Positions 4,802-23,982 of a stretch of 64,000 nt of DNA are shown here, in pieces. This stretch comes from Patescibacteria group bacterium (GTDB taxonomy: Bacteria > Patescibacteriota > Doudnabacteria > UBA920 > O2-02-FULL-48-8). Position numbers and translations under genes: made by a program. Under the pieces are notes generated by a model, which worked only from the letters and a program-made list of their open reading frames with translations, was not told the DNA's origin and did no database searches. Position 1 is the stretch's first letter, and each line of letters starts with the position of its first letter. Location of the stretch: NCBI GenBank assembly GCA_036278915.1, contig DASUKB010000001.1, positions 91,892 through 155,891 of the forward strand. The letters run 5' to 3'.

Positions 4802-5044
4802 ATGAGTTACTCTCCGGTCTCAATATGCATCTATTGCATGTTGCGTAGATTTTGGCAGGTGGATCGTCGCGGGCTGAACAAGCTCGAGGCGATGGGCATC
4901 CTCACGGTTGCCACCATTTGTCAAAAGACTCGCCGCGACCTCAGGCAGATACGAGGTGTGGGCAATCTGACGATTGCGGAGGTTGAGCGAATACTCGCCA
5001 TCTTCAACGAGAAGTTGAAAGAAGATCTTCCACTCTTCAGATAA
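4802..5044 (+). CDS. Small helix-hairpin-helix DNA-binding protein (RNAP alpha-CTD-like)
   Basis: 80 aa. The DLRQIRGVGNLTIAEVERIL motif is HhH-like. Strong AAGGAGGAG SD. GC-rich hairpin terminator at 5056-5087. Confidence 0.45.
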   Translation: MSYSPVSICIYCMLRRFWQVDRRGLNKLEAMGILTVATICQKTRRDLRQIRGVGNLTIAEVERILAIFNEKLKEDLPLFR

Positions 5045-5159
5045 CCCTACCCGAAGGCGCTCGCCCTTTGAGCGCCTTTTTCTTTTTGTGTCAAGAGACT
5101 AGGGTCTTGACCTTAGGATTGCTCAGGTCTACGTTTTAGTTGTAATTAACAATAACCAT

Positions 5160-5720
5160 ATGAGTCCCTATAGTCCCCAATATCATAATAGTTCTTGGTT
5201 TGGTGACTGGTGGTGGGTGATAGTCCTTGTGATTGTAGGAATTGCTGCCGCAATATATTTAATTTACACGGAGCTTGGCCGACGACATTCAACACGTTTA
5301 TTTTTGCGGAACCAAAAAGTACCACAAATAATGAAAGACCTCACTCCCTTGTCCTTTGAAATTTGGGTGAGGGGATTATTTATAAATATTGGAGCAGACG
5401 CCATACTTTCCAAACGAGAATCAAAAACCGGTTTTGATCACGGGATTGATTTAGTCGCGCATTACAAAGGTCAGAAAATTTGTATTCAATGCAAGAAATA
5501 TTTCCCGAACAGATTGGTCGATGAAACAATTTTGCGAGATTTATATGGAGCAATGGAGTATGGCAAATACGACAAAGCGGTACTTGTCACCACCAGCAGT
5601 TTTACTCGCCGCGCGCGAGAGTGGGCGGAGAAGGCTGATGATATGATTTTGATAAACGGTGAACTCCTCCAAAAGATGCGAGACAATACAGGAATCCTGA
5701 TAAACCTTTTAAATAAATAA
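5160..5720 (+). CDS. Membrane-anchored Mrr_cat (restriction-endonuclease-like) domain protein
   Basis: N-terminal TM helix (WWWVIVLVIVGIAAAIYLIY). The Mrr_cat pattern follows: LSFEIW..., ...GFDHGIDLVA..., ...ICIQCKKY..., ...VLVTTSSFTRRAREWA. Located in the AT-rich island. Confidence 0.6.
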   Translation: MSPYSPQYHNSSWFGDWWWVIVLVIVGIAAAIYLIYTELGRRHSTRLFLRNQKVPQIMKDLTPLSFEIWVRGLFINIGADAILSKRESKTGFDHGIDLVAHYKGQKICIQCKKYFPNRLVDETILRDLYGAMEYGKYDKAVLVTTSSFTRRAREWAEKADDMILINGELLQKMRDNTGILINLLNK

Positions 5721-5884
5721 CGCCCCACACTCCTATGGGGCGTTAAAATTTGACAAAATGCCCATTTGGCTATAAACTTTAGGAAAGATATAATTTTTTA
5801 GAGCGGCTTTTGCCGCTTTTTTTGTCTTAATTCCATATTGCCCTTGACGTCTTTTTTTGCCTATAGTAATATTTTATTACCTAT

Positions 5885-6211
5885 ATGCAAATAAGTAAAC
5901 TAGTCAAAAATTTAAGAGACCAAAGTGAGTTCACACTCGACGTTCTAGCAAAGAAGACCGGGTTATCTGCAGGTTTTCTATCTAGATTAGAAAAGGGCAA
6001 TTACGATAACAAGAACATACAATTGGAGACAATTATACGCTTGGCGAATGGTTTGGGACAAAAGTTAAAAGATTTTTTGGACAACTTGCAGATTATAGAC
6101 CAGAATGAATTACCTCCTTTGAATCTATACCTGAGAGAAAAGTATAAGATAAAAAAAGATTCAGATATAAAAACTATCGAAGACATAATTAATAAGTTTA
6201 CTGATGAGTAA
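5885..6211 (+). CDS. XRE-family helix-turn-helix transcriptional regulator
   Basis: FTLDVLAKKTGLSAGFLSRLEKGN is a canonical Cro/C1 HTH. Overlaps the next gene by 8 nt. Confidence 0.8.
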   Translation: MQISKLVKNLRDQSEFTLDVLAKKTGLSAGFLSRLEKGNYDNKNIQLETIIRLANGLGQKLKDFLDNLQIIDQNELPPLNLYLREKYKIKKDSDIKTIEDIINKFTDE

Positions 6212-6776
6212 TTCCATAATACAAACTATAAATTCTGATGCAGAAAAAATCGCTGCAGCAATAATAGACTCGATCAATTATGGAGAAAATCCGCCACTTG
6301 GAAAGTTAATTGGTTGGTTAGAAGATAATCTACGCTCTCAGATTGATCTTAAACATATCGATTTGGGTTCTACTCCTGTTTGCGGTCTCACGTATCATGT
6401 TTTTTCAAAAGATATGTATGTGGTCCGTGTTGACAAAACCAATCCATACACAAGACAAAAATTTACGGTTGCTCACGAACTAGGACACATAATAGGAGAC
6501 TTGCAGTTAACAGCTATAGCTGGTTATTTCGACGGCGAATTGGAAAATGTAAAAAGTGGTTTGGAAAGATTTTGCAATAGATTTGCCGCAGCTTATTTAA
6601 TGCCACCAGAAATATTTAAAAGGATTTGGTCCATGTCTGGAGATAAGAATTCAACACAAATAACGAAGATGCTTTATGTTGCTTCAAGATTTGGTGTTTC
6701 CGAAGAGGCGGCCAGGTATAGAGCTATCGAACTTGGATTACTAAATTACAGTAAACGGGACAACGACCGAAATTAG
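6204..6776 (+). CDS. ImmA/IrrE-family metallopeptidase (DUF955)
   Basis: HEXXH in FTVAHELGHIIGD. Classic XRE+ImmA/IrrE pair arrangement. Confidence 0.75.
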   Translation: MSNSIIQTINSDAEKIAAAIIDSINYGENPPLGKLIGWLEDNLRSQIDLKHIDLGSTPVCGLTYHVFSKDMYVVRVDKTNPYTRQKFTVAHELGHIIGDLQLTAIAGYFDGELENVKSGLERFCNRFAAAYLMPPEIFKRIWSMSGDKNSTQITKMLYVASRFGVSEEAARYRAIELGLLNYSKRDNDRN

Positions 6777-6800
6777 CGTTGTAGAAAGGACGAAACAAAA

Positions 6801-7091
6801 ATGATCAGAATTACTTGTATCAACAAAGATAACGGTAATCATGAAAACCCACATTTGGCCATTACCTACTTAGGTTGGATAGAAGACGGTACTAATGCGG
6901 TAGGAAAATGGGCTCGATTACAGTTATATAGATGGATCAAGGAGCAAGGCGGGATTGCGTATGTTATGGATGCTATTAAGAACCGCGTATACGTAAAACC
7001 TGCCGTTTCTGTAATGGGGAATCCTTATGTTCGGACTGAATCCGATGGCAAGGTTACAAATAATTTACTCTCGTTAATTGAGTGTAAATAG
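6801..7091 (+). CDS. DUF3892 domain protein
   Basis: 96 aa. The C-terminal ...VRTESDGKVTNNLLSLIEC matches the conserved DUF3892 signature (T..D....NNLL.LP.C). Confidence 0.55.
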   Translation: MIRITCINKDNGNHENPHLAITYLGWIEDGTNAVGKWARLQLYRWIKEQGGIAYVMDAIKNRVYVKPAVSVMGNPYVRTESDGKVTNNLLSLIECK

Positions 7092-7190
7092 CAAAGACCC
7101 GAATATAATTCGGGTCCATACTCGAATTATATCACAAAAAGCGGCACTAGTGCCGCTTTTTGCTTTTTTGAATTAAAAATGTCAAAATAA

Positions 7191-8042
7191 ATGAAAGATT
7201 TAAATCAACTAGCCTTGAAATTAAAGACCAAAATTGACGCCCAGCCCTTTATAAAGTGGGCTGGCGGTAAAAGACAGCTTTTAGATGAGCTTGAGAAGCA
7301 CAAGCCTAAATGGTTCAATAGATACTTTGAACCATTTGTTGGCGGTGGAGCTTTATATTTTCGGATTCAGCCAGGGCAAAGTTTTCTGTCGGATATAAAT
7401 CCTGAATTAGTAAATCTATATTTAATAATTCAAAGTAAAGTTGATGAATTAATTTCTGAACTCAAAAAATTAAAAGTATCGGAGAAAGAATTTTATAAAA
7501 TAAGAAATATTGACAGAAAACCGGAATATAGAGAATGGAATAACATAAAAAAAGCTGCAAGATTTATATATCTAAATAAAACTTGCTTTAATGGATTGTA
7601 CAGAATGAACTCCAAAGGCCATTTTAATGTTCCTTATGGTAACCAAAACAATCCAAAAATTCTTGACGAATATAATCTCCGGCAAGTAAATAAATTATTG
7701 CAAAATTCTGATATCAAATGTCAATCCTATTCTGGAATAGAAAAAAATGTAAAGAAAGGTGACTTTGTCTACTTTGATCCTCCTTATGCTCCATTAAACA
7801 AATCTTCTTTTACGAAGTACTTTAAAGACGATTTTGATATTAAAATGCAGGTTGATCTACGAGATTTATGCGACCGTTTAGATAAAAAGGGTGTTTATTT
7901 TATGATTTCAAATTCTCATACATCCTTGATTTTTGGATTGTATAAAAACTATGATATCAAGGTAGTTGACGCAATCAGAGCTATCAACTGCAAGGGTTCT
8001 GGTAGAGGAAAAGTGAAGGAAGTCTTAATAACGAATTACTGA
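7191..8042 (+). CDS. Dam-family (D12 class) N6-adenine DNA methyltransferase
   Basis: The N-terminal SAM motif (KWAGGKRQLL, FEPFVGGGALYF) and the catalytic DPPY (VYFDPPYAP) match the alpha-group m6A MTases of the Dam/DpnM/T4Dam family. Confidence 0.85.
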   Translation: MKDLNQLALKLKTKIDAQPFIKWAGGKRQLLDELEKHKPKWFNRYFEPFVGGGALYFRIQPGQSFLSDINPELVNLYLIIQSKVDELISELKKLKVSEKEFYKIRNIDRKPEYREWNNIKKAARFIYLNKTCFNGLYRMNSKGHFNVPYGNQNNPKILDEYNLRQVNKLLQNSDIKCQSYSGIEKNVKKGDFVYFDPPYAPLNKSSFTKYFKDDFDIKMQVDLRDLCDRLDKKGVYFMISNSHTSLIFGLYKNYDIKVVDAIRAINCKGSGRGKVKEVLITNY

Positions 8043-8043
8043 A

Positions 8044-9297
8044 ATGTCCAACCGAGAACTATGGTCAAAGGTGTTTGAAATAAAAAAATTTGATCTAAAT
8101 AAAGATATTCATTTTATTACCGCAAAGGAGATAAAGCAGATCACTGGCCAAGAGCCAAGGAATATGGCTAAGATGGATAGCACTGCAGATCTGCCGTCTA
8201 TTTTCAAAAATAACGGTTATTTTTTATTACCAATTGAAAATGGGAGATATGAAATTATACGAGGTGAGGGATATCATAAATTAGAAAAAAATAAAAAGAC
8301 AGGTGAATATGATGCAGATATTAAATTTTCTATTACGACTGCTGCCAGGGGTGCAAGTGAGATGGAATATTTAGATTACTCAATTTATACAGGAGTGCTT
8401 GAGAAAATTTTGGGTCTAGGTTCCATGTACCCATCCATCCGAGGGCGTGGCCGAAGCCGAAGTTTTAATTTTTTTGTTAACCGTCATCAAGTGGATGTTT
8501 CAGGTGTCCAACTGGAAGTAGATTCAGGTTTAGAAGCGGAGCATGCCATAGTTCTTATTGAAGCCAAAATGGAGACTCCTGAGGATTTTATTGTCCGACA
8601 ACTTTATTATCCATATAGACATTTTGGCTTGATCTCGCCTTATAAAAAAATTGTCCCAACTTTTTTTACTTATGATTTAGGCAATAAAGTTTATAAATAT
8701 TGGGTTTATGATTTTAAAAACGATGTAGATTACAATTCTATATATTTAAAATCCGTCCATGCTTTTAAAATCATAAGTACCGAACCAGTGGAACTAAGCG
8801 AGCTAAAACCTTTGGAAAACACGCAGATCGCTGATATTCCACAGGCCAATGATCTTGATAAAATTATAACTATGGTTTTTGGTGTTAATGAAAAGATTGA
8901 TGATTATAAAAAAATTGCAAAATATTTTGAGTTTAATGAGCGTCAGAGTAGCTACTATAGACAGGCTGCTGAGTCTTTAGGGTTAATCTCTTCTCATAAA
9001 GGTAAGTATTATCTTACCGATAAAGGGCAGAAATTGATTAAATTGTCTACTTCTGAGAGAAATATATTTTTTATTAAGCTCATCTCGGAATACGAGCTTG
9101 TGAAAAGTAGTTTGGATATTCTTCAGCATAAGTCGGTTTTGACCGATGGAGATTTAGTTAAGCTTGTCCGCCAAAACCATAAAATAAGTGGCAGCACTGT
9201 TATCCGACGCGCTCAATCATTGAAATCTTGGTTAAATTGGATCGCTGAGAGGACAAATACGTTTATAAAAGAAGATAACAAATTTATAGTCTCATAA
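8044..9297 (+). CDS. Putative PD-(D/E)xK restriction-endonuclease-like protein with C-terminal winged-helix domain (probable partner of the Dam-family MTase)
   Basis: Start codon 1 nt after the MTase stop (translational coupling). Candidate nuclease motif ...QLEVDSG...AIVLIEAKME (D...ExK). The C-terminal ~130 aa look wHTH-like (YYRQAAESLGLISSHKGKYYLT). No family can be assigned without a search. Confidence 0.4.
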   Translation: MSNRELWSKVFEIKKFDLNKDIHFITAKEIKQITGQEPRNMAKMDSTADLPSIFKNNGYFLLPIENGRYEIIRGEGYHKLEKNKKTGEYDADIKFSITTAARGASEMEYLDYSIYTGVLEKILGLGSMYPSIRGRGRSRSFNFFVNRHQVDVSGVQLEVDSGLEAEHAIVLIEAKMETPEDFIVRQLYYPYRHFGLISPYKKIVPTFFTYDLGNKVYKYWVYDFKNDVDYNSIYLKSVHAFKIISTEPVELSELKPLENTQIADIPQANDLDKIITMVFGVNEKIDDYKKIAKYFEFNERQSSYYRQAAESLGLISSHKGKYYLTDKGQKLIKLSTSERNIFFIKLISEYELVKSSLDILQHKSVLTDGDLVKLVRQNHKISGSTVIRRAQSLKSWLNWIAERTNTFIKEDNKFIVS

Positions 9298-9319
9298 TTT
9301 TATCCAATAATTTAAATCT

Positions 9320-9649
9320 ATGTCCAATTTGATGTATTTGGTTATCGGAATTGTGGTTGGGTATGTGATTGCCAGGGTTCAGCGCAATTTTGCTGCAAGA
9401 AAAGATTCTTCGCCTGCGGCTCAGAATGATAATTCTCTCAATCAACAACGGGCCGTGGAGCATCAGGCACATCTCGATAAAATTCTTGCAAGTTTCAATT
9501 CTGGAGATGAGATTACCAATGACAAAGTCCAGGCGTTGCTTGGGGTTTCTGATACAACTACTGGTAGATATTTGGAAGAACTAGAGAAGCAGGGGAAGCT
9601 GCAACAGATCGGTACTTTGGGGAAATATGTTAAATATCGAAAAATCTAA
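9320..9649 (+). CDS. Small membrane-anchored winged-helix protein
   Basis: N-terminal TM helix (LVIGIVVGYVIARV), then a predicted helical region ending in a wHTH-like segment (ALLGVSDTTTGRYLEELEKQGKLQQIGTLGKYVKY). Confidence 0.4.
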   Translation: MSNLMYLVIGIVVGYVIARVQRNFAARKDSSPAAQNDNSLNQQRAVEHQAHLDKILASFNSGDEITNDKVQALLGVSDTTTGRYLEELEKQGKLQQIGTLGKYVKYRKI

Positions 9650-9787
9650 CGCCCCATACGGGTGTGGAGAGTTAGAAGAAAAAAATCACTGATTTAAATT
9701 ACTTTCATTTTTATTAAATATACAAATTCAATTGATGAAGCAGATTACACCACATCTTTGGTACGATAAGCAGGCAAGAGGAGTATT

Positions 9788-10288
9788 ATGAACATACTAT
9801 ATGATGTAGCGGCGTGGGGGGCATTCTTTATGGCTGTAGCCGGAGCCGGGGCGGCTCTCACCGGACTTGTATTTGTAAGTATCACTTTGAATTTACAAAA
9901 AATCGTGGGGTCCGCCCGGTTGGTGGGGCGCGCAGAAGAAGCAGTGCTGCATTTGCTCTCAACTGTTATACTTTCTCTCGTCTGTCTTATGCCTGGCATA
10001 TCGGCTAAGCTTACCGGCATATTTGTACTCATACTTATAATCCCGACGTGGATTTTCTTAACTGACCTGCACCGCCGGGCTTACGCGGAGCAAAAGCAGG
10101 AAAACATGCGCTCGTTTATGTCGCGGTTCGTGCCAGCGCAGGTGGCGCTGGTGCCGATTATAATTTCTGGCATAAGCCTTATGGCGCATGGCGGCGGCGG
10201 TTTGGGCTGGCTGGCATTTGGACTTATGGCATCGGTGACAGTGGGCGTGGTGGATGCCTGGGTTTTGACTATAGAGATCATAAGATAA
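9788..10288 (+). CDS. Hypothetical polytopic membrane protein
   Basis: 166 aa with about 5 hydrophobic segments. No recognisable family. Confidence 0.4.
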   Translation: MNILYDVAAWGAFFMAVAGAGAALTGLVFVSITLNLQKIVGSARLVGRAEEAVLHLLSTVILSLVCLMPGISAKLTGIFVLILIIPTWIFLTDLHRRAYAEQKQENMRSFMSRFVPAQVALVPIIISGISLMAHGGGGLGWLAFGLMASVTVGVVDAWVLTIEIIR

Positions 10289-10290
10289 GC

Positions 10291-10548
10291 ATGAGCCCGT
10301 TTTTTGTATACATTATCAAGTGCAAAGACGGGACGCTTTATACCGGCATCACTACGGATTTGGACCGAAGGATTGCGGAGCATAATTCGTCCAAGCTTGG
10401 CGCCAAATACACCCGCGCGCGCCGGCCCGTAAAACTGGCTTATTCCCAAAAATTCCTCACTCGCTCTGCTGCCTGCCGGCAAGAAGCGAGAATCAAGCAA
10501 TTTACGCGTGTGGAAAAGCTTGCGCTCATAAAAAAGAAAAGGCGATAA
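10291..10548 (+). CDS. GIY-YIG nuclease superfamily protein (YhbQ/UPF0213-like)
   Basis: FFVYIIKCKDGTLYTGITTDLDRRIAEHN...AKYTRARRPVKLAY is the GIY-YIG core. Confidence 0.75.
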   Translation: MSPFFVYIIKCKDGTLYTGITTDLDRRIAEHNSSKLGAKYTRARRPVKLAYSQKFLTRSAACRQEARIKQFTRVEKLALIKKKRR

Positions 10549-10620
10549 TTAGAAATTTTTATGGTTATTCGTTGACATGCGTGGTGGTTTTGCTAGAATT
10601 CTCTTTGTGAAGGAGGGTTC

Positions 10621-10830
10621 ATGCAACAGGTCCATTATTTCCACAGCCGAAAGCTTATGGAAGCTTTGGAATTTGCGCGCAAGTCCGGATTCCCCGTAAG
10701 GCTGGCTCCGGCGTGCGCGTACGGTGGATGGGTGAAGCTTGCGGACAACGAAGAAGAGTTCAAGACCCTGTTCAAGAAGGCGGCCCGCAGGTCGCCCGGC
10801 AACGAAGTCGAGGTGCAAATCCTCGCATAG
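10621..10830 (+). pseudogene. Isolated ATP-grasp domain fragment (GC-rich, own promoter/SD/terminator)
   Basis: 69 aa. FPVRLAPACAYGGWVKLADNEEEF...NEVEVQ resembles the B-domain of ATP-grasp carboxylases. The rest of the enzyme is absent. Promoter-like TTGACA-16-TAGAAT at ~10572-10600, a GAAGGAGG SD, and a terminator at ~10841-10875. Confidence 0.3.
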
Positions 10831-10949
10831 ACCAATTTCTGGAAGGTGTCCACCGTGGGCGCCTTCCTTTTTATTTGTGGAAATTACAATTGTCAGTGAA
10901 TTATTTTCTTTGTATGATAAACACAAGCAATTAAGCTGAAGGGATATAT

Positions 10950-11252
10950 ATGTATATAGTGCGCGAAGTGTTTACGGCCAAACCGGGCAATGCGTCCAAA
11001 ATGGCCAAACTTATGAAAAAAGCATTTAAAGCCGACGCTAAAGCTCGCGTGATGACCGACATGGTGGGTCCATACAATACCGTGGTGGTGGAGACAGAAG
11101 TCAAAACCCTGGCGGAGTGGGAACAAACAATGCTGGACATGAAGGCGGGCAAGCCGGACCCAAACATGGACGAGGAAGCCATGAAGGAGATGGCCAACTA
11201 CACCGAGATGTATATGAAAGGCCGACGCGAAATTTATCAGATCCTGGAATAA
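10950..11252 (+). CDS. Small dimeric alpha+beta-barrel-like protein (NIPSNAP/ABM-like)
   Basis: 100 aa. The N-terminal MYIVREVFTAKPG motif resembles NIPSNAP/ABM-fold stress proteins. Weak assignment. Confidence 0.3.
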   Translation: MYIVREVFTAKPGNASKMAKLMKKAFKADAKARVMTDMVGPYNTVVVETEVKTLAEWEQTMLDMKAGKPDPNMDEEAMKEMANYTEMYMKGRREIYQILE

Positions 11253-11256
11253 TTTT

Positions 11257-11619
11257 ATGATTGCAGATTTGGGACGATACGCCAGTCTAGGGTTTTGGGT
11301 GATGCAGGCCGTGGTCGGCATAATTTTTATATACCACAGCGGGTTTAAGATAAAACATCCGTCGCAGATTGCCTCGGCTTACGGCGCACCGGCGTTTGTG
11401 GGCTTGGCCCACGGATTGGTGGAATTGGTAGGCGGGGCTTTGCTGGTGGTAAACTTTTACGCGCAGCCTGTGGCGTTTATATTTGGGCTCATCATGCTTG
11501 GGGCCATATACATGAAGATGTTCAAATGGAACGTCGGGTTCTTCGCGCACGACAAAACCGGCTGGGAATTTGACCTCATCCTGCTGGCCTGTTGTGTGGC
11601 CATAGTCACCAGAGTTTGA
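11257..11619 (+). CDS. DoxX-family membrane protein
   Basis: 120 aa. The hydrophobic pattern with GLVELVGGALLV and the terminal MKMFKW is typical of DoxX. Confidence 0.6.
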   Translation: MIADLGRYASLGFWVMQAVVGIIFIYHSGFKIKHPSQIASAYGAPAFVGLAHGLVELVGGALLVVNFYAQPVAFIFGLIMLGAIYMKMFKWNVGFFAHDKTGWEFDLILLACCVAIVTRV

Positions 11620-11660
11620 TTTACAATTGACAAATCATGTTTGCTTGTTAAAATAAATTT

Positions 11661-12245
11661 ATGATTACGTGGTTTAAAGTAATTGTGTTCTTGCATATAA
11701 TTTCTGCTATCATCTGGATCGGCGCGGTGATCGTGTTGGAAATTTTGGAATGGCAAACCGTGCACGCCACCAGGCGCGAGCAGATCGCATCGCAAACTCA
11801 CCGCCAGAATTGGTTTGGCAAGCGCGTGTTTGCTCCGGCATCTATAGCAACCATTGTGACTGGACTTATTGCTGTGGCTATAGGCAATCCGGCCTTTAAA
11901 CAGTTTTGGGTGATAGTGGCTTTGGTGGGCGTGGCTGTGGCTTTGGGACTTGGCGCGGGCGTCATCGGCCGCACCATGGGTAAGATTTCACAGATGCTGG
12001 CGAATCCGGCCACCACAGATGAACAAATTGAACAGCAGTTTCAGTTCCTTAAGCCGTTTACGTTTCTGGATCTGGCGGTGCTCATATATATTTTGTTTGA
12101 TATGGTTATGCGGCCGGCAACTGCAAACACCGGATTCCTGGGTGTGACTGTCGTATACTTTGCGATCGTGCTTGTATCCATCGCTCTTGCCCGCGCAAAA
12201 TCCCACAGACCAAAAATAGAATTTCACGACCAACCGCACACCTAA
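11661..12245 (+). CDS. Hypothetical integral membrane protein (DUF2269-like)
   Basis: 194 aa with 4-5 TM helices. Terminator hairpin at ~12231-12258. Confidence 0.35.
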   Translation: MITWFKVIVFLHIISAIIWIGAVIVLEILEWQTVHATRREQIASQTHRQNWFGKRVFAPASIATIVTGLIAVAIGNPAFKQFWVIVALVGVAVALGLGAGVIGRTMGKISQMLANPATTDEQIEQQFQFLKPFTFLDLAVLIYILFDMVMRPATANTGFLGVTVVYFAIVLVSIALARAKSHRPKIEFHDQPHT

Positions 12246-12321
12246 CGTGCGGTTTTTTTGACACCCTAAGCGCTTTTTATATTTGTTTGCCAAGCCCTAG
12301 CAATGGTATAATTTTATCAGT

Positions 12322-12588
12322 ATGAAGAAGAATACATTAGTTCTAATAGTTCTCATAATTCTGCCGGTTTTTTTGATAAATGTACTTCAAAACCTAAACA
12401 ATAAATATAAATTCGTATTACTAATAGTTTCTATCTTGTCCAGCTTATGGATTGTTATAAGATCAGCAAGATTTACGAATATAAGAGGTAAGATTATTTG
12501 GATGTCTGTAGGGGGAATATTAGCAGCCTTATTGATTCTATATTTTTGGATTGCTTATTCCTGGGTTCACGCTAATTTTATTTTATAA
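12322..12588 (+). CDS. Small 3-TM protein, tandem paralog 1 (type A, C-term WVHANFIL)
   Basis: MKKNTLVLIVLIILPV... Preceded by a TGgTATAAT extended -10 (12305-12312) and TTGCCA (12287-12292). No SD; likely a leaderless or short-leader mRNA. Confidence 0.55.
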   Translation: MKKNTLVLIVLIILPVFLINVLQNLNNKYKFVLLIVSILSSLWIVIRSARFTNIRGKIIWMSVGGILAALLILYFWIAYSWVHANFIL

Positions 12589-12627
12589 TTATTTGCCAAG
12601 CCCTAGCAATGGTATAATTCTATCTGT

Positions 12628-12906
12628 ATGAAGAAGAATACATTAATCCTTTTATTTTTGATCCTTCTGCCAGTGGGTTTGGGTTTTGCCTATGACGCTT
12701 CTGGTATGTATGACCATACTACTGGAACTAAATTTACGCTCTTATCCATAGCGCTACTTTCTAGCATTTATTTATTTTTTAGATCTTTATCATTAGAAAA
12801 AAGTAACGTCAAGAACTTTTGGGTTGCCATTTCATGTATCTTAATTGCTACTTTATTACTTTTCATTATGGCAGGATATTCGTTTACTAGCCTAGAAATT
12901 GGATAA
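12628..12906 (+). CDS. Small 3-TM protein, tandem paralog 2 (type B, C-term SLEIG)
   Basis: Its 60-nt upstream region is nearly identical to that of paralog 1 (TTGCCA 12593-98, TATAAT 12613-18). Body diverged. Confidence 0.55.
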   Translation: MKKNTLILLFLILLPVGLGFAYDASGMYDHTTGTKFTLLSIALLSSIYLFFRSLSLEKSNVKNFWVAISCILIATLLLFIMAGYSFTSLEIG

Positions 12907-12948
12907 ATGTAAATAATTATTTCGCCACCTAGGGTATATTCTATTGGC

Positions 12949-13221
12949 ATGAAGAAGAATATAATCATATTAATATTTCTTGTTGTGCTACCTACTGTAC
13001 TAGAATTGTTGCCGTTAAACCCAACGGATTATAGCAATAGGACCGCATACAGCCTTTTGACTGTGTCGTTGGTATCGAGCATATGGATATTTGTGCGTAC
13101 ATTAGCATATGAAAAATCTTGGACTAAGTACGCATGGGTAACTGTTTCAGTTATATCAATATTATTTTTTGTAACTTGGATATATATTGGCTACTCGCTG
13201 TCCCATATAGAAATAGGATAA
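12949..13221 (+). CDS. Small 3-TM protein, tandem paralog 3 (type B, C-term HIEIG)
   Basis: MKKNIIILIFLVVLPTV... Upstream GGTATATT -10-like box. Confidence 0.5.
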   Translation: MKKNIIILIFLVVLPTVLELLPLNPTDYSNRTAYSLLTVSLVSSIWIFVRTLAYEKSWTKYAWVTVSVISILFFVTWIYIGYSLSHIEIG

Positions 13222-13273
13222 ATTAAAAAAACAAAATAGCCGAAGGACTTTTTCTAAATTGATATCTAATATT

Positions 13274-13546
13274 ATGAAAATGAAAAGGAATATCTTGATT
13301 TTTATCTTTTTGGTAGTTCTGCCACTCGTTTTGGTAAAAATTATACCAAATCTTAGTAACGAATATAGCTTTGTTGCATTATCGATATCCATATTAGCGA
13401 GTATTTGGATAGTAATAAGGTCTATAAAATTACCAAGTTCCAAAATTAGAATTACTTGGATAATTATAGGAGCATTATTGGTAATTGTATTGAGTTTATA
13501 TTTTTGGCTTGCGTATGCTTGGGTCCATGCAGACTATATTTTATAA
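13274..13546 (+). CDS. Small 3-TM protein, tandem paralog 4 (type A, C-term WVHADYIL)
   Basis: The ORF-track start (13259) is a TTG. The ATG at 13274 (MKMKRNILIF...) aligns with the other copies. Confidence 0.5.
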   Translation: MKMKRNILIFIFLVVLPLVLVKIIPNLSNEYSFVALSISILASIWIVIRSIKLPSSKIRITWIIIGALLVIVLSLYFWLAYAWVHADYIL

Positions 13547-13624
13547 AATTTCATTAAATCATAAATAAAATAGCCATAGGGTCGGTTGTTTGACAAGCCC
13601 CAGCAATGGGTATATTTTATCGAT

Positions 13625-13873
13625 ATGAAGAAAAAGTTGATTATATTTCTAAGTTTGGTAGTACTACCCGATTTAATTGGTTATTGGTTTTATAATACAA
13701 GAATTTATACTGTAACTTCATGGGTTTCGATTCTGGCGTCACTGTGGTTGTTAGTTTTAAGTATTAAAGAGAGAAATTGGGTTCATTTTAGTATTTTTCT
13801 TTTAATCTTTGTTGCGGCAGTAATGTATTTCTTAATTGGTATATCGATTAGTCACATAGAAATAGGCGGATAA
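13625..13873 (+). CDS. Small 3-TM protein, tandem paralog 5 (type B, C-term HIEIGG)
   Basis: The ORF-track start at 13586 lies inside the promoter (TTGACA 13589-94, 16-nt spacer, TATATT 13611-16). The ATG at 13625 (MKKKLIIF...) aligns with the family. Terminator ~13896-13925. Confidence 0.5.
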   Translation: MKKKLIIFLSLVVLPDLIGYWFYNTRIYTVTSWVSILASLWLLVLSIKERNWVHFSIFLLIFVAAVMYFLIGISISHIEIGG

Positions 13874-13945
13874 AATACCGAAAACAAAAAACCAAAACAA
13901 AAATAGCCACAGGGGCTATTTTTTTCGTAATTAATTTCTAATTTT

Positions 13946-16690
13946 ATGAAACATACTTTGAAAATATTAATACCAGCAGTTTTTGTATGTTTGTTTTTTG
14001 CCCACACTGCCAACGCGCAAGTCAACTTCCGTATCCATAGCTTCGGCATGATCTTGCAGCCAAATGACGCGCCAGGCCAGTACACCTTTTTGATTAAACA
14101 AAAGATTAATGGCGAGTATGTGGACCTTATAAACAAGCCCTTGGATGTTCACCTTACTGATCTTGTAAGCTTGTTCGCATCTCTTGATAATGAAGATTAC
14201 CTTATTACGATGGATTTGCCGCCCGGTGCGGTGCTGGACAGCGTGGATTGTACGGATTCGAATTCTTTAAGTACGTTCATCCCAATCCCGGGAGGTGTAC
14301 ACGCGCTCCCGCAAGGTACGGGTAATCTTCTTTGTACTTTTACTACTTCAAAAGCTGCGACAAGCAAGACACCTGTTCTAATCGTTCCAGGAGTACTTGG
14401 AACTAATATTAAAAAAGGTGACGATGTCCTATGGCTAAATCCACTTAAGTCAATAGTGGATCCAGCTGATCATTTCATGAATTCTTTGTCTTTCAGCACT
14501 GATTTAAATCCGGTCGATCCCGATGTAACCTTTGGATCTGTCATAGGTAAGGTTGGCGTGGGTAGAATTAGTTATGATTACACTCAAAGTTTACGGCAAG
14601 AGTTGATAGACCAGCATTATACCGAAGGTGTTGATCTGTTTACCTTTCCATATGATTGGCGTTATGGCGTTTCTGGTAAAGATTCAAGTGGAGATTTTGT
14701 AAATCTCAAGGCATTTGAGGGCCAGATGAATTATATTTTGACACAGACCGGTGCGGGCAGGTCAGCTGGTAAGGTGGATGTAATTGCCCATTCAACAGGC
14801 GGTTTAATCGTTAAGTAGTATATTCAAGAACATCCGTCGGATAATCATATAGATAAGGCTGTTTTTGTGGGTACCCCAAACTTAGGCGCACCCAAAGCTT
14901 ACAAAGTTCTTATCGCTGGAGATAACTTTACTATACAGGGATTGAGCGATAGTGAGATGAAATTTTTGGCTCAAAACATGCCAGTAGTTTACGATTTAGC
15001 CGCAGACCAGAATTATTATAATCTGGCGGGTAGTCCAATGACTATCCATTTCGACCCAGCGTTAGGTAAACCAGATACTCAGGATACTCTAACCGAAATG
15101 ACTAACCAGTTAGAAAATAATGATCTAATTAACTCATTGGCGATGTCGGATAGTCAGGTCTTACATGACTCTTTGGATAATTTGGATATTTCTAGCACGA
15201 ATGTGGATACTTACAATATTATTGGTTGCAAAACAGGTACTTTTGGAAGTTTTACAGCAAATTTGGGTATAAATAATGATATAGAATCGTTTGATTTTCC
15301 TAAAATCACGCCTGGTGATGGGACGGTCCCGCTTTTGAGCGCTAAAAGTATAAATGCTTCCGATGATCATACCTTTTATGCGCCGGGGGTTCAGCATAGT
15401 AGTTTACTTTCTGCTGATGGACCAATGCAGGAGATCGTAAATATTGTAAGCGGCAGTAATTTGGATGTCGGCAAGGTTGTATCGCAATCCAGCCTTAATG
15501 ATGACCCTTCTCAATGCCAACTCAAGAAAGGGAAATTTTTGGGAATCTTCAGCCCTGTTTCTATAAGCATTACGGATCAGGAAGGGCAGATTTCGCAAGT
15601 TCTAGATGACGGCAGCATAGAAAATGACATTCCCGGAGCAGATTATGAAGTCTGGGGCGAACATAAGTATATTTATCTTCCCACAGATGCCGGCCAGCAG
15701 TATTCGATTGAACTGACAGGCACAGGAACCGGGACTTTTACTCTCAAGGATGAGGATATTGAAGATAATAATGTTACTGGAACGGAGGTGTTCAGTAATC
15801 TGCCAGTGACGACCAGCCTCAAAGGCCAGGTCGTGTTAGCTGATACCTCTTCGCTTGAATTGGATAACAATGGGGATGGTGTATTTGATCAAACACTCTT
15901 GCCGACTTCGGTTGTAAATGGCGAGCAATCCGACGATATAACTCCTCCCATTACCTCGGCGGATATTTCTGGCATCCAAGGACAGCCAAATTATTTCCGC
16001 AGTAACGTTGCTATCAAATTATCCGCGCAGGATTTTGTGGATCCGGCCAAGCCAAATCAAACCTCCGGCATGCTGAATACGCACTTCAGTTTAGACGGAT
16101 CAGAGATAGAAAATTACCAAGTACCAATTACCGTTTCTTCGGAAGGCGCGCACACAATCCGATTTTTCTCAACGGATCGGGCAGGGAACAATGAGCCCGA
16201 GCAAACAATCAACTTTGTTGTGGACAAAACTGCGCCTGAATTTAGTATCCAATTTGATCCCAGCAGCCAAGATATTAAATTTACGGGCACAGACAATTTG
16301 ACTCCGGCTGAAAATGTAAGCCTCCAGGACAATGATGATCAGATAATAATTAGCGATCAAGCCGGCAACACTTCAGAAATTATCCTGTCGAGCAAGGATC
16401 GCAAGAAAAAAATGACTGCCGAGATTGAAGGACTTTTGTATAACGGCGTGGCGGCGGATTTGAGCAAAAATAAATTTAGTTTCAGCTGGCAGTACGACAA
16501 ACAAGGCCAGCTCAAAAAACTTACGCAAAGCGCGCAGGATAAGAAAAACTTTAGAATTGATGCCACTTTCGACGGGCAGCAAACCCGTTTTCGCGGAAAT
16601 GGCAACCAAGGAAAAATAAACGAGCTGCGGCCTGGACTAGTCTCCCTAAAAATTCGCACGCAGACAGGGGATCTGATGTGGTCGTATTAA
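13946..16690 (+). pseudogene. Secreted LCAT/PGAP1-like alpha/beta-hydrolase (lipase/acyltransferase) with C-terminal beta-rich domains, interrupted by one in-frame TAG (14816-14818)
   Basis: Signal peptide MKHTLKILIPAVFVCLFFAHTANA. PVLIVPGVLGTNIKKGDDVLWLNP (the LCAT-family PVvLvPG motif). Nucleophile elbow AHSTGGLIVK, then TAG, then YIQEHP...KAVFVGTPNLGAPKAYK in the same frame. Later GDGTVPLLSAKS and HSSLLS. The two ORF-track entries (13946..14818, 14867..16690) share one frame. Confidence 0.6.
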
Positions 16691-20857: not shown

Positions 20858-22003
20858 ATGAGTTTTGAAATTTCCAAAAAAGATGAAAGCACTAAGGCCC
20901 GGACCGGAATTATTCACACCGCGCATGGAGACGTGCATACGCCCGTGTTTTTGCCCATCGGCACCAAGGGCGCCATCAAATCCATAGCCGCCGAGGAGCT
21001 CAAGTTTTGGGGCGCAGAAATGATTCTGGCAAACACTTACCATCTCTGGCAGCGTCCAGGAGACGCACTTATTGCCAAAGCAGGCGGCCTGCATAAATTT
21101 ATGAACTGGAAAGGGGCTATATTCACGGACTCCGGCGGGTTTCAGGTTTTTTCACTTGCCAAAATGGTAAAAGTCACAGACACCGGCGTAACGTTCCAAT
21201 CCGATATCGACGGTTCTACGCATACGCTTACGCCAGAGTCATCGGTACAGATCCAGCTCAATTTGGGATCAGATGTGGCACTCGTGCTGGATGAATTTCC
21301 CGGATTTCCCGCCACCGAAAAACACGTAAAAGAAACCGTAGCCAGGACCACGGCCTGGGCAAAGCGCGCCGCGCTGGAACACAACAAGCTTGCTGGCTCT
21401 TCGCTTAATCCCGGCCAGATGCTGTGGGGCATAATACAAGGCGCGACTTTCAAAAAACTGCGCAAACAATCCGCGGAAGAAATTTCTGCCATCGGTTTCC
21501 CAGGATTCGCCATAGGCGGCGTGGCTGTGGGGGAACCGCCCGAAAAAATGTACCAAGCCGTGGAGGACTCAATTCCTTATCTGGATGAAGATAAACCAAA
21601 GCATTTGCTGGGCGTGGGCACGCCGGAACAAATTGTGCAAGGGGTTGCCCGTGGCTGCGACAGTTTTGACTGCGTCATCCCCACGCGCGAAGCCCGCCAC
21701 GGCAAACTTTATATAAACCTCAAACCAGGCGAAGGCGAAGGTTATACTACCATCAATATCGATAATGAAAAATTCAAAGAAGATTTTTCCGCGGTAGACA
21801 ACACCTGCAATTGTTATTTGTGCATGAATTTCACGCGAGCGTACTTGCGGCATTTGTTTGCCACCAAAGAGCCTTTGGGAATTCGCCTGGCGACCATGCA
21901 CAATCTGCGGTTTTATTTAAACCTTATGCAGACCGTGCGCACGGCCATCGAAACCGGAGGCTTTGACCACTTGCACAAGAGTTATAAGGAGCATAATATT
22001 TAG
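20858..22003 (+). CDS. tgt: Queuine tRNA-ribosyltransferase
   Basis: ARTGIIHTAHGDVHTPVFLPIGTKGAIKS, zinc site CNCYLC, and LGIRLATMHNLRFY. The ATG at 20858 (MSFEISKK) is preferred over the extended ORF-track start at 20735. Confidence 0.9.
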   Translation: MSFEISKKDESTKARTGIIHTAHGDVHTPVFLPIGTKGAIKSIAAEELKFWGAEMILANTYHLWQRPGDALIAKAGGLHKFMNWKGAIFTDSGGFQVFSLAKMVKVTDTGVTFQSDIDGSTHTLTPESSVQIQLNLGSDVALVLDEFPGFPATEKHVKETVARTTAWAKRAALEHNKLAGSSLNPGQMLWGIIQGATFKKLRKQSAEEISAIGFPGFAIGGVAVGEPPEKMYQAVEDSIPYLDEDKPKHLLGVGTPEQIVQGVARGCDSFDCVIPTREARHGKLYINLKPGEGEGYTTINIDNEKFKEDFSAVDNTCNCYLCMNFTRAYLRHLFATKEPLGIRLATMHNLRFYLNLMQTVRTAIETGGFDHLHKSYKEHNI

Positions 22004-22024
22004 GTCAATAAGGAGGTTGCTGAT

Positions 22025-22402
22025 ATGCGCGTTGACTGGGACCGCTACAACGGGCTCGTGTCTATGACTATCACCGGCAAACTCGGTCGGGAAACGGATC
22101 CGCAGCAAAAGGATTTATCGGAATATGTTTCCGACCTTTCCGAAGCAGACCGCAAGGCTCTGGTGTTTGATCTATCCAATGTGACCGGCATCGATACCTA
22201 CGGCATAGGCCAGATGATCTACTGTCAGCAGCTGATTCTCGAATCCGGCGGGAAATCCTGCTGGGTCCTGCCCAAAGAATCAGCCTCGTACGCCAAACTC
22301 CGGCATTTGTTGGACCGGATGCAACTATCAAAGGTGTTCATCTTCTGCGACACCATCCAAGACGGCTACCAGAAGATGTCTGCCAACAAAGGAACCGCTT
22401 AG
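22025..22402 (+). CDS. STAS-domain protein (anti-sigma-factor antagonist-like)
   Basis: VFDLSNVTGIDTYGIGQMI is the SpoIIAA-like STAS core. Terminator at 22393-22433. Confidence 0.6.
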   Translation: MRVDWDRYNGLVSMTITGKLGRETDPQQKDLSEYVSDLSEADRKALVFDLSNVTGIDTYGIGQMIYCQQLILESGGKSCWVLPKESASYAKLRHLLDRMQLSKVFIFCDTIQDGYQKMSANKGTA

Positions 22403-22525
22403 GCCCCTAAGGAGCAGAAGCGGTTTTATTTTTCTGTCGTACATGTTAGACTATATGCAAATAAGAAGTGGCGCAGCCAGCCTGGCTTAAAGTCAGGCAA
22501 CCAGTGTCATATTCAAAAGGAATTT

Positions 22526-22642
22526 ATGCAAGAATCAAAATTTGATCTGATGGACAAAGTAATCTCGCTTGCCAAAAGACGGGCCGCCCACAAATCTAAT
22601 CCTTTGACGGGCGAGCCTCGTCTTTTTGTTTTTAAAAAATAA
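22526..22642 (+). other. 38-codon upstream ORF re-encoding the GlyRS N-terminus, followed by a terminator hairpin
   Basis: MQESKFDLMDKVISLAKRR... versus GlyRS MKQEQKFDLMDKVISLAKRR... Ten synonymous differences and one nonsynonymous over 18 aligned codons. A hairpin plus T-run lies at ~22598-22635. Confidence 0.4.
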
Positions 22643-22647
22643 ATTTT

Positions 22648-23982
22648 ATGAAACAAGAACAAAAATTCGACTTGATGGATAAAGTGATTAGTCTAGCAAA
22701 AAGGCGGGGTTTTATTTTTCCTGGAAGCGAAATTTATGGAGGGCTAGCCAACAGCTGGGACTACGGCCCGCTTGGCGTAGAGCTGAAAAATAATATCAAA
22801 AAACTTTGGTGGAAAATGTTTGTGCAGGAGCGCAGCGATATGGTAGGCATAGACGCAAGCTTGATTATGAACACAAAAGTCTGGGAAGCTTCGGGACACC
22901 TTCAAAACTTTACCGATCCGCTGGTGGAATGCAAAAAATGCCATACTCGATATCGGGAAGATCAGAAACCAGACGAATGTCCGGTTTGTGGTTTCAGCGA
23001 ATTCACACCAGCCCAGCAATTTAATTTGATGCTCAAAACATTTTTAGGACCAACGGAAGAGAAAGCCAATGAAGTCTTTTTTCGCCCGGAAACGGCTCAG
23101 GCGATTTTTGTAGACTTCAAACAGATTTTGGAAACTTCCCGCCAAAGAATTCCTTTCGGCGTGGCGCAGATTGGTAAAGCTTTCCGAAACGAAATCACTC
23201 CAGGCAACTTTATATTTCGCACGCGCGAATTTGAGCAGATGGAAATAGAATACTTCATCCAGGCTGAAGAATGGGAAAAACATTTTGAAAATTGGCTGAC
23301 GGAACTCAAAAAATGGATTAAGGCTGTGGGAATCGACGAGAAAAAAGTCCATTATGAAGAAATTGGCGAGGCTGACCGTGCATTTTATAGCAAGCGCACT
23401 ATAGACGTAGAATTTGAATACCCGTTTGGACAAAAGGAATTGTACGGCTTGGCTTATCGTACCGATTATGACCTGACTCAACATCAGAAATTTTCCGGCA
23501 AGGATTTGTCTTTCTTGGACCCAACGACAAACGAAAAATTCATACCGCACGTCATAGAGCCTTCGCTGGGCGTAGATCGTACTGTTTTGGCGGTATTGCT
23601 TTCATGTTATTCCGAATCCGAAGCGCGATCAGGCAAAGAAGATGCCGTGCACGAGACAGAAGTGACTTTGAGATTGCCGAAAAAAATTGCGCCAATCAAA
23701 ATCGCCGTGCTGCCGCTTTCCAAAAAAGACGAATTAACGGGTCCCGCGCACGAAATTGTAAATAGCTTGCACAAAACTTGGATGTGCCAGTATGATGAGA
23801 CAGCCTCAATCGGCAAGCGCTACCGAAGGCAGGACGAAATCGGCACGCCGTACTGCGTGACAGTGGATTTCGAAACCGCCAAAGATGAGTCGGTAACGGT
23901 GCGCGACCGCGACACCATGCAGCAGGATCGAATCAAAATTTCTGACTTGGAAAAATATTTTAAAGATAAATTGCAGCGCTGA
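22648..23982 (+). CDS. glyQS: Glycyl-tRNA synthetase, alpha2 (eukaryote/archaeal-like) type
   Basis: 444 aa, a single-chain class II aaRS with the FRNEITPGNFIFRTREFEQMEIEYF motif 2 region. Confidence 0.9.
   Translation: MKQEQKFDLMDKVISLAKRRGFIFPGSEIYGGLANSWDYGPLGVELKNNIKKLWWKMFVQERSDMVGIDASLIMNTKVWEASGHLQNFTDPLVECKKCHTRYREDQKPDECPVCGFSEFTPAQQFNLMLKTFLGPTEEKANEVFFRPETAQAIFVDFKQILETSRQRIPFGVAQIGKAFRNEITPGNFIFRTREFEQMEIEYFIQAEEWEKHFENWLTELKKWIKAVGIDEKKVHYEEIGEADRAFYSKRTIDVEFEYPFGQKELYGLAYRTDYDLTQHQKFSGKDLSFLDPTTNEKFIPHVIEPSLGVDRTVLAVLLSCYSESEARSGKEDAVHETEVTLRLPKKIAPIKIAVLPLSKKDELTGPAHEIVNSLHKTWMCQYDETASIGKRYRRQDEIGTPYCVTVDFETAKDESVTVRDRDTMQQDRIKISDLEKYFKDKLQR

Follow-up and report, generated by a model that had tools for sequence, protein, structure and literature searches.

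Why should a bacterial gene be preceded by a second version of its own beginning? The question is raised by glyQS, the gene for glycyl-tRNA synthetase (GlyRS), in a 64,000-nt stretch of the genome of a Patescibacteria group bacterium of the Doudnabacteria lineage (contig DASUKB010000001.1 of assembly GCA_036278915.1, positions 91,892 to 155,891; the whole stretch is called the window, and positions are counted from its first letter). Just upstream of glyQS, a short open reading frame (ORF) encodes nearly the same peptide as the start of the enzyme. Our explanation is that this upstream ORF (uORF) is the native glyQS start, displaced by a 125-nt insertion, that the insertion is the footprint of a mobile, homing-type element, and that glyQS is now expressed by a relay through the uORF. 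We give this explanation as a whole a probability of about 0.62. It would account for a puzzling, self-mimicking uORF without a new regulatory principle, and it carries a caution for annotators, since such uORFs, where they precede conserved genes, can be traces left by mobile elements.

The uORF occupies 22526-22642 (38 codons plus a stop; this and all other features described at the locus lie on the + strand). In the window's ORF list it encodes MQESKFDLMDKVISLAKRRAAHKSNPLTGEPRLFVFKK* and opens MQESKFDLMDKVISLAKRR. It is followed by glyQS itself (22648-23982), which encodes a class II glycine--tRNA ligase of 444 amino acids (Pfam PF00587 and PF03129) with the N-terminus MKQEQKFDLMDKVISLAKRRGF, opening MKQEQKFDLMDKVISLAKRR; the protein is 100% identical to that of a Patescibacteria metagenome-assembled genome. 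A preliminary description of the locus, made from the sequence alone, had recognised that the 38-codon ORF mimics the GlyRS start, and the uORF indeed duplicates the first 19-20 glyQS codons, with 17 of 18 aligned residues identical. At the DNA level the direct repeat (22529-22583 versus 22654-22708) spans 55 nt at 75% identity with a start-to-start spacing of 125 nt, and its homology ends abruptly past CGG(G), at 22583 and 22708. The 14 nucleotide differences over the 18 aligned codons comprise synonymous changes in 10 codons, bearing out the roughly ten first reported and including TCG versus AGT for Ser, and a single non-synonymous one (S versus Q). Random placement of 14 substitutions gave one amino-acid change or none in 0 of 200,000 simulations, indicating that both copies diverged as coding sequence. 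Between the uORF stop codon (22640-22642) and the glyQS ATG are 5 nt, not the roughly 15 nt given earlier. A second copy of the N-terminal peptide was also sought across the 64-kb window, as for an island with att-like repeats, and only the adjacent pair is present; among the remaining genes of the window, none shows a duplication of its start or end.

We then compared the two copies with glyQS in other genomes. About 150 glyQS loci were collected from species-representative genomes and metagenomes, together with the contigs of the closest proteins (L-numbers denote loci); the contig of one of these proteins, P0007, was compared by gene map only. The nearest relatives of the window GlyRS are Doudnabacteria-like, and the close relatives share 78-86% GlyRS identity and the same TGT-(STAS)-glyQS-M16 peptidase gene order. 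All of them (L001, L002, L154-L157 and the P0007 contig) lack the uORF. At its position they have the real glyQS ATG, 11-19 nt past the same structured leader, and the native starts of the clade open MQESKFDL..., MQENKFDL... or MKEEKFDL.... In the window the uORF start lies 13 nt past the leader and the glyQS start 141 nt past it, and the spacing from the STAS gene to the uORF start agrees with that from the STAS gene to the glyQS start in a relative's contig. The start of the uORF is identical at 52 of 57 nt to the glyQS start of L154, the closest relative. The working start matches L154 at 44 of 57 nt (its best match is L001, 49/57), and its first residues, MKQEQ..., depart from the clade-typical MQESKF... 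or MKEEKF.... The uORF, nearer to L154 and placed behind the native leader, is thus the resident start and the working start the newcomer.

The uORF is therefore very probably an orphaned native glyQS start, created by insertion. Its first half (22526-22583; ATG, 18 codons and a G) is the orphaned 5′ end, and the replacement start (22648-22707; ATG and 19 codons) is in frame with the resident gene. A second pair of loci has the same polarity: L113 carries an insert, L112 (92% identical to L113) is insert-free, the uORF start of L113 (MKEKND) is the start of L112 (MKEKNDLMDK), and both L113 flanks align to L112 at about 84.5%. The preliminary description had suggested, as one of two readings, a recombination remnant of a divergent glyQS allele. 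Two alleles are indeed present, with their roles reversed, and the case is not a one-off, given nine other lineages described below. The same description had proposed aligning the leader across related genomes and had taken absence of the uORF from close relatives as telling against regulation; on that ground a conserved regulatory role for the uORF is refuted. Separately, a contig otherwise syntenic with the window's clade (L160, 378-1100) carries a glyQS with several frameshifts. Its 67-amino-acid 'glycyl-tRNA synthetase' fragment was considered as a related case and set aside as part of a multiply frameshifted gene, either a pseudogene or an error-rich assembly, unrelated to the present architecture.

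What separates the two copies is an ORF-less module (22584-22647) with no counterpart in the close relatives, consisting of GCCGCCCAC, an apical stem, TTGACGGGCGAGCCTCGTC, a U-run and an AT-rich spacer. Folding and a terminator scan place a long, intrinsic-terminator-like element at 22574-22633. Its hairpin pairs 22574-22589 with 22609-22626 (16 pairs, -27.6 kcal/mol, z = -5.0 versus shuffles), and the U-run UUUUUGUUUUU (22621-22633) is directly 3′ of it. The 5′ arm is built from the last uORF codons shared with glyQS (AAA AGA CGG) and the first inserted bases. In sequence, this is the G+C-rich stem and immediate U-run of an intrinsic terminator. The GC stem and T-run reported earlier at about 22598-22635 are thus real, and they belong to a larger hairpin, of 16 pairs from 22574 to 22626 and continued by UUUUUGUUUUU to 22633. 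The 3′ arm can alternatively pair with 22697-22709, the downstream copy of CAAAAAGGCGGGG. In the hairpin type the arms are GCCGCCCAC and TTGACGGGCGAGCC.

Loci were screened for a second copy of their own N-terminus, for the hairpin core, for an abnormally long distance from leader to ATG and, in a protein database, for the uORF peptide. The same architecture of orphan start, insert and replacement start is found in glyQS of nine other Patescibacteria lineages in three forms, and inserts of three unrelated kinds occupy only about 10 lineages among the more than 150 loci examined. The hairpin form of the window recurs in four lineages (L113/L158, L108, L159 and L037/L116/L147), with homologous hairpins in L113, L108, L159 and L037; loci of this form fold at -26 to -34 kcal/mol. 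They have the common junction CGG|GCCGCCCAC, then a variable apical stem, then TTGACGGGCGAGCCTCGYCTTTTTG. Altogether a 50-nt module is homologous in five lineages, the window's included, from two GlyRS clades: the hairpin-form enzymes measured (L113, L108, L159) are 81-85% identical to one another and 60-63% identical to that of the window. The form seen in L033 (1767-1845) is an unrelated ORF-less insert past codon 10, with an 18-bp near-perfect inverted repeat, CCAGTAGTAGAAGTTCGAT...ATCGAACTTCACTACTGG, and an orphan frame whose stop is 4 nt short of the new ATG. Across nine lineages the breakpoints are no more than 6 nt apart, and insert-bearing and insert-free genomes are interleaved; the window carries the insert and six of its clade-mates do not. 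A fixed site and a patchy, interleaved distribution argue for a mobile, homing-type element over a chance scar.

The composition of the window cassette gives some indication of its history. Its start, MKQEQ..., is like those that cassettes bring at the other hairpin loci (MTKQD, MKKDE, MSKKD, MTKND), and a spacer similar to its own (AAAATAAATTTT-ATG) is present in L159. The remainder of the replacement copy is of the window's own clade type, which suggests that the donor was a clade-mate in which the cassette was already present. In the window the orphan copy is undamaged, whereas orphans in the other clade have non-conservative changes (AK to DI or LF) or an internal deletion, which suggests a recent arrival in the window's lineage. 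In those other lineages the hairpin nucleotides are invariant while the orphan peptide decays.

In four further lineages (L010/L150, L161, L162/L163 and L165) the same glyQS site holds a nuclease gene. The junction is RRGF|ACCCKCCCAACTTTTTGA, and the orphan fragment ends ...KRRGF|TLPTF* (or TRPTF*). An ORF for a GIY-YIG protein of about 90 amino acids (PF01541, E = 4e-14) begins 1-4 nt past the orphan stop and ends 5-14 nt before the new glyQS ATG. Terminal inverted repeats, CCTCCCAACTTTTT and AAAAAGTTGGGAGG, flank it and are perfect or near-perfect over 14-23 bp; the right repeat lies within the conserved C-terminal KKVGRT/KKLGG codons of the nuclease gene. The genes are located at L010 1610-1893, L161 191-475, L162 141-421, L164 2610-2906 and L165 about 170-470, with terminal repeats ACCCTCCCAACTTTTT / AAAAAGTTGGGAGGGT. 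Four of the five genomic contexts inspected for this family are the glyQS site, and the fifth, L164, is intergenic with the same repeats. The L010 protein has 91 amino acids, of which residues 1-69 match PF01541, and its homologues have 85-107, the longer ones only through upstream read-in. Proteins of about 90 amino acids leave no room for a second domain, so the two-domain architecture of I-TevI is absent. The small GIY-YIG proteins widespread in Patescibacteria thereby gain a concrete candidate role and target site.

Three observations concern this protein family more broadly. Many of the GIY-YIG homologues are on very short contigs, as is usual with repeats. One homologue, P0156, is read in from the apparent 3′ part of a tRNA gene (...VVGSIPTRG... 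in translation). The window also contains an 85-amino-acid GIY-YIG (YhbQ-like) ORF at 10291-10548 (+), within a region of strongly fluctuating G+C (30-50%, about 5000 to 14000) that may be a genomic island. As a candidate relative of the nucleases at the glyQS site this ORF was rejected: it is of a different subfamily, 26% identical to the L010 protein, and its surroundings contain neither convincing terminal repeats nor duplicated gene ends.

A mobile element is, in our judgement, the likelier source of the insert. In the window, a 125-nt insertion past codon 19 (...AAA AGA CGG|G) would have orphaned the resident start. It would have brought, in order, an inverted-repeat hairpin with a U-run behind it, a short AT-rich spacer that lacks a ribosome-binding site, and a replacement ATG with about 20 codons from another glyQS allele, in frame with the gene body. 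The complete element would be the GIY-YIG gene of about 90 codons within its 14-23 bp terminal inverted repeats, of which the window would hold an ORF-less, hairpin-only form. Spread would resemble that of a homing endonuclease gene, in which an empty allele is cleaved and repaired from an occupied one. The orphan fragment and the gene body would serve as homology arms, which would account for the replacement start that accompanies the cassette in every case, and that start would restore the essential gene. We infer both nuclease-driven mobility and the derivation of the hairpin form from a nuclease-carrying element. A fuller proposal stands on longer odds and is unlikely to hold in every part: a selfish element of a kind not described before, a minimal GIY-YIG gene for the catalytic domain only between terminal inverted repeats, would home into the first 20 codons of glyQS, supply its own start, depend on the relay, give rise to hairpin derivatives and sit behind a leader that mimics tRNA-Gly.

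Gene-end replacement of this kind is documented for the mobile-ORF 'gene hybrids' of fungal mitochondria, in atp6 of Allomyces macrogynus and in atp6, atp9, cox2 and nad3 of Glomus; these hybrids comprise a foreign C-terminus, an endonuclease ORF and the displaced native C-terminus, and the divergence of the two ends is mostly synonymous (PMC3630166). In glyQS too, an element-borne gene end is fused in frame, the resident end is displaced nearby, the differences are mostly synonymous, the native copy is the one that agrees with close relatives, and occurrence is patchy. The combination that marks such a replacement, a native copy like that of close relatives and a foreign copy fused in frame, is present in the window. 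An endonuclease ORF between the copies, also typical of the hybrids, is absent from the window and present in L010, L161, L162 and L165. Unlike the fungal cases, the glyQS site involves a 5′ end, not a 3′ end, and lies on a bacterial (Patescibacteria) chromosome, not in an organelle. The fungal enzymes are LAGLIDADG or long GIY-YIG proteins, whereas the glyQS site has a single-domain GIY-YIG protein of about 90 amino acids with terminal inverted repeats, and the window copy has no ORF, only a hairpin. The displaced glyQS fragment, unlike its fungal counterparts, keeps its promoter and start signals and is therefore probably translated, feeding the downstream gene. New here are the 5′-end position, the bacterial host, the minimal terminal-repeat GIY-YIG gene, the ORF-less hairpin derivative and the apparent relay, so that replacement of gene ends by endonuclease elements, documented at fungal mitochondrial 3′ ends, would extend to the 5′ end of an essential bacterial gene.

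Phages carry free-standing GIY-YIG homing endonuclease genes, the seg genes and relatives of I-TevI among them, and the characterised GIY-YIG homing endonucleases have a C-terminal DNA-binding domain and create no duplicated gene end. Like these, the nuclease gene studied here occupies one specific site beside or inside an essential gene in some lineages, with expression tied to host signals. Unlike the phage enzymes, the proteins at the glyQS site consist of the catalytic domain only and their genes are flanked by terminal inverted repeats. Mobile elements also have ORF-less derivatives, such as elements resembling miniature inverted-repeat transposable elements (MITEs) and ORF-less group I introns that are mobilised in trans. 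The likeness is a short inverted-repeat element at a site held elsewhere by an ORF-carrying relative. The window hairpin has inverted arms, but it differs from MITE-like elements in that the flanking 'duplication' is 55 nt at 75% identity, not an identical target-site duplication, and in being single-copy in the window.

Several observations weigh against our explanation. The 64 nt between the orphan fragment and the replacement ATG (22584-22647) contain no ORF of their own and no nuclease gene, and among the loci examined no hairpin-type cassette with an ORF in its loop turned up. The hairpin core has no further copy in the 64-kb window, and it was not found in the viral contigs searched either. 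The left end of the hairpin form, GCCGCCCAC, resembles the L165 repeat ACCCGCCCAAC in a way that is only suggestive; some pairwise alignments of hairpin arms with the GIY-YIG terminal repeats reach p of about 0.002-0.05 and most fail to, so that homology between the two is at most a lead. A DNA-binding domain, such as characterised homing endonucleases of the GIY-YIG type normally have, is missing from the proteins at the glyQS site. In the inserted hairpin, covariation amounts to one compensatory pair (A-U to G-C), no better than in shuffles, and we claim no structural selection on the hairpin from it. Finally, the statistic for the open frame described next is modest (about 2e-3) and could reflect survivorship at insertion instead of present function.

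An element that takes over a 5′ end must also solve an expression problem, apparently by an open-frame relay. Frame-opening analysis shows the uORF running from the orphan start on through the inserted hairpin and U-run. In the window this frame runs without a stop to within 5 nt of the ATG, the other two closing 40 and 48 nt short of it. The seven loci tested (others were judged by inspection) all have an orphan frame that crosses the insert uninterrupted and ends 1-17 nt ahead of the next ATG; the remaining frames mostly close 40-72 nt earlier. Shuffling puts the chance of an open frame at 0.10-0.15 per locus and at about 2e-3 for three unrelated insert types. In L037 an indel shifts the frame past the stem, with the loss of GEPRLF, yet the frame is open. 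Between the uORF tails of the window and L113, changes outside the stem are mostly non-synonymous. This rules out conservation of the tail as a peptide, which had been considered, and places conservation at the nucleotide level.

The signals needed to start such a relay are found on the native side of the insert. A promoter-like extended -10 element (22444-22456; TG-T-TAGACT / CTATAT) is presumably the native glyQS promoter, and TGnTAnAAT-like elements occupy the equivalent place, 15-25 nt 5′ of the leader, in L001, L002, L113, L155, L156 and L159. A scan for two-hexamer consensus promoters gave no match, so the promoter at 22444-22456 is read from the sequence; it is the only promoter-like element, and the interval from the hairpin to the glyQS ATG accommodates no sigma-70-like promoter. 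A Shine-Dalgarno-like AAAGGAA (22516-22522, likewise read from the sequence) precedes the native start, now that of the uORF. An AAGGA-like element is also found before the orphan start in L113, L159 and L037 and before the native start in L112 and L157. Across the hairpin loci AAGGA is kept at the orphan start in four of five, and the working glyQS ATG is without a Shine-Dalgarno-like sequence in all five.

Since glyQS is essential, transcription must get past a hairpin and U-run that resemble a strong terminator. Transcription would begin at the native promoter (22444-22456), and ribosomes would load at the native start behind the conserved leader. Moving on from the orphan start, they would melt the hairpin and so avert termination or a structural block; having stopped 5 nt short of the glyQS ATG, they would re-initiate at that codon. 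Where the insert is a nuclease gene, the relay would run from the orphan start to that gene and on to glyQS, which would thereby remain under native 5′ control in either form. The anti-termination at the hairpin and the re-initiation at the glyQS ATG are steps that we infer from the arrangement of signals. Coupling of uORF translation to glyQS is plausible because the uORF spans the terminator-like hairpin and ends just before the glyQS ATG everywhere it is seen. A translational relay through the orphan uORF is thus a serious possibility, for which we would put the odds at even or slightly below.

The same geometry invites a second explanation, also put forward in the preliminary description, namely a dedicated leader-peptide attenuator. 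In the form considered here, translation of the uORF would sense glycyl-tRNA supply or the level of GlyRS and control a terminator before glyQS. Attenuators of the trp, his, thr and pheST type have a short ORF overlapping a hairpin and U-run just 5′ of an amino-acid-related gene, and ribosome position could decide hairpin formation here as it does there. A strong hairpin and U-run lie within the uORF, the stop is 5 nt before the ATG, the frame is open in 7/7 loci tested, the 3′ arm can pair alternatively with the downstream CAAAAAGGCGGGG copy, and the leader preceding the uORF is a conserved structure. Glycine codons speak both ways: the sole one of the uORF (GGC) falls within the 3′ arm of the hairpin, but one Gly in 38 codons, and one each in the uORFs of L113, L159 and L108, is no enrichment for the cognate codon and nothing like the run found in true attenuators. 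The tail TGEPRLF/SGEPRLF recurs in four lineages, but L037 has lost GEPRLF through its frame shift past the stem, and the changes between window and L113 tails are mostly non-synonymous outside the stem. In other lineages the N-terminal half of the uORF decays or is deleted, in all close relatives a plain leader is followed by the start with no uORF, and elsewhere the same glyQS site holds a nuclease gene. A poorly conserved ORF that is a decaying copy of the gene's own N-terminus and originates by insertion is unlike the known attenuators. We therefore regard a dedicated attenuator as improbable. Its conserved peptide does not survive comparison with relatives, with the count of Gly codons or with the decay of the orphans, and the part of it that stands is a plausible coupling of the uORF to glyQS.

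Another explanation dispenses with a mobile element and sees a one-off scar of homology-facilitated illegitimate recombination: DNA arriving from a related strain would have been joined by homology within glyQS and illegitimately at codon 19, the resident start and junction sequence staying in place. The two copies do look like alleles of different lineages, the insert in the window has no ORF, and uptake of DNA is attributed to Patescibacteria. Recurrence of this kind is not expected of a random scar, however, whereas the junction CGG|GCCGCCCAC is identical and the 50-nt module homologous in five lineages from clades only 60-63% identical. Two further insert types lie in the same stretch, one at the same codons and that of L033 past codon 10, and one of the types is a nuclease gene flanked by terminal repeats in four lineages. 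We give the scar little credence.

A direct repeat with 125-nt spacing and two copies intact at the protein level would also result if the glyQS 5′ end had been duplicated in tandem in place and the copies had then diverged, each under selection as a peptide. Copies made in place should not be unequally distant from L154 (5 versus 13 differences in 57 nt), nor should the working copy have first codons that are not of the clade type. The intervening module is moreover common to a distant clade whose orphan copies decay, and no intermediates with two identical start copies were found among the about 150 loci, which together leave this explanation very unlikely. An assembly or binning artefact joining two strains at glyQS is hardly credible, even for a metagenome-assembled genome whose G+C varies along the window, because copies only 75% identical would not mislead an assembler, gene order is preserved on either side, and independent assemblies with different flanking genes, drawn from four data sources (NCBI, JGI, ENA, Logan), have the same architecture.

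The 5′ leader retained by the orphan start is a finding of its own. In this RNA (22470-22512) a 5-bp stem, P1, leads through a symmetric internal loop, each strand of which carries A-N-C-C-A, to a variable hairpin, P2; 11-19 nt separate the RNA from the native ATG. An alignment of 19 distinct sequences is paired in 95% of its cells, and compensatory changes occur at 9 of the 12 pairs; none of 500 shuffles matches this, and slid controls are 27-52% paired. The covariance model built from it, R1, has one match in the 64-kb window (48.6 bits, E = 1e-9). Among genome loci R1 is found in 13 of 78, solely just upstream of glyQS or of the orphan start, including L033, L037 and L011 from outside the seed. 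The leader is also present in L001 (3942-3990), L002 (3944-3987), L007, L032, L034, L038, L072, L073 and others. An Rfam scan of the region assigns 22470-22512 to no family. The preliminary description had seen neither a T-box nor a glycine riboswitch upstream of glyQS, and cmscan of 21900-23100 on both strands at E <= 10 agrees, with no match to RF00230 or RF00504 and only four chance-level matches to unrelated families; what that description had overlooked in this region is the conserved structured leader.

Lying beside the start codon and carrying invariant CC(A) triplets, the leader may be a translational operator to which a protein binds. The invariant N-C-C-A is reminiscent of the tRNA-Gly anticodon with A37 or of the discriminator base with CCA, and by analogy we conjecture that the leader is a tRNA-Gly mimic that dimeric GlyRS might bind in autoregulation. 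The thrS operator of E. coli is a tRNA mimic in a synthetase mRNA, upstream of the start codon; unlike it, the glyQS leader is a single hairpin with a symmetric internal loop. The HisRS mRNA of yeast is a further example of a tRNA mimic in a synthetase mRNA (PMC6542539). With both, the glyQS leader shares a conserved structure just 5′ of the start codon of an aminoacyl-tRNA synthetase gene. The leader is a glyQS-specific structure in a phylum in which synthetase regulation is essentially undescribed. If it is an operator, a relay through the orphan uORF would keep glyQS under leader control after insertion.

Two minor repeats in the window remain to be described. An exact 13-nt repeat, GGTTTTATTTTTC, occurs at 22422-22434, in the U-run of the terminator of the upstream STAS gene, and at 22708-22720, in glyQS codons 21-24 directly past the insertion breakpoint; low sequence complexity and chance probably account for it. 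In the ORF at 2044-2493 the last 20 residues (DPDITESTWREWLPVVEAAD) resemble a translated stretch about 300 nt downstream, at about 2808 (DLDMTVEEWKATLPYFEAAD), and the two are probably neighbouring paralogues.

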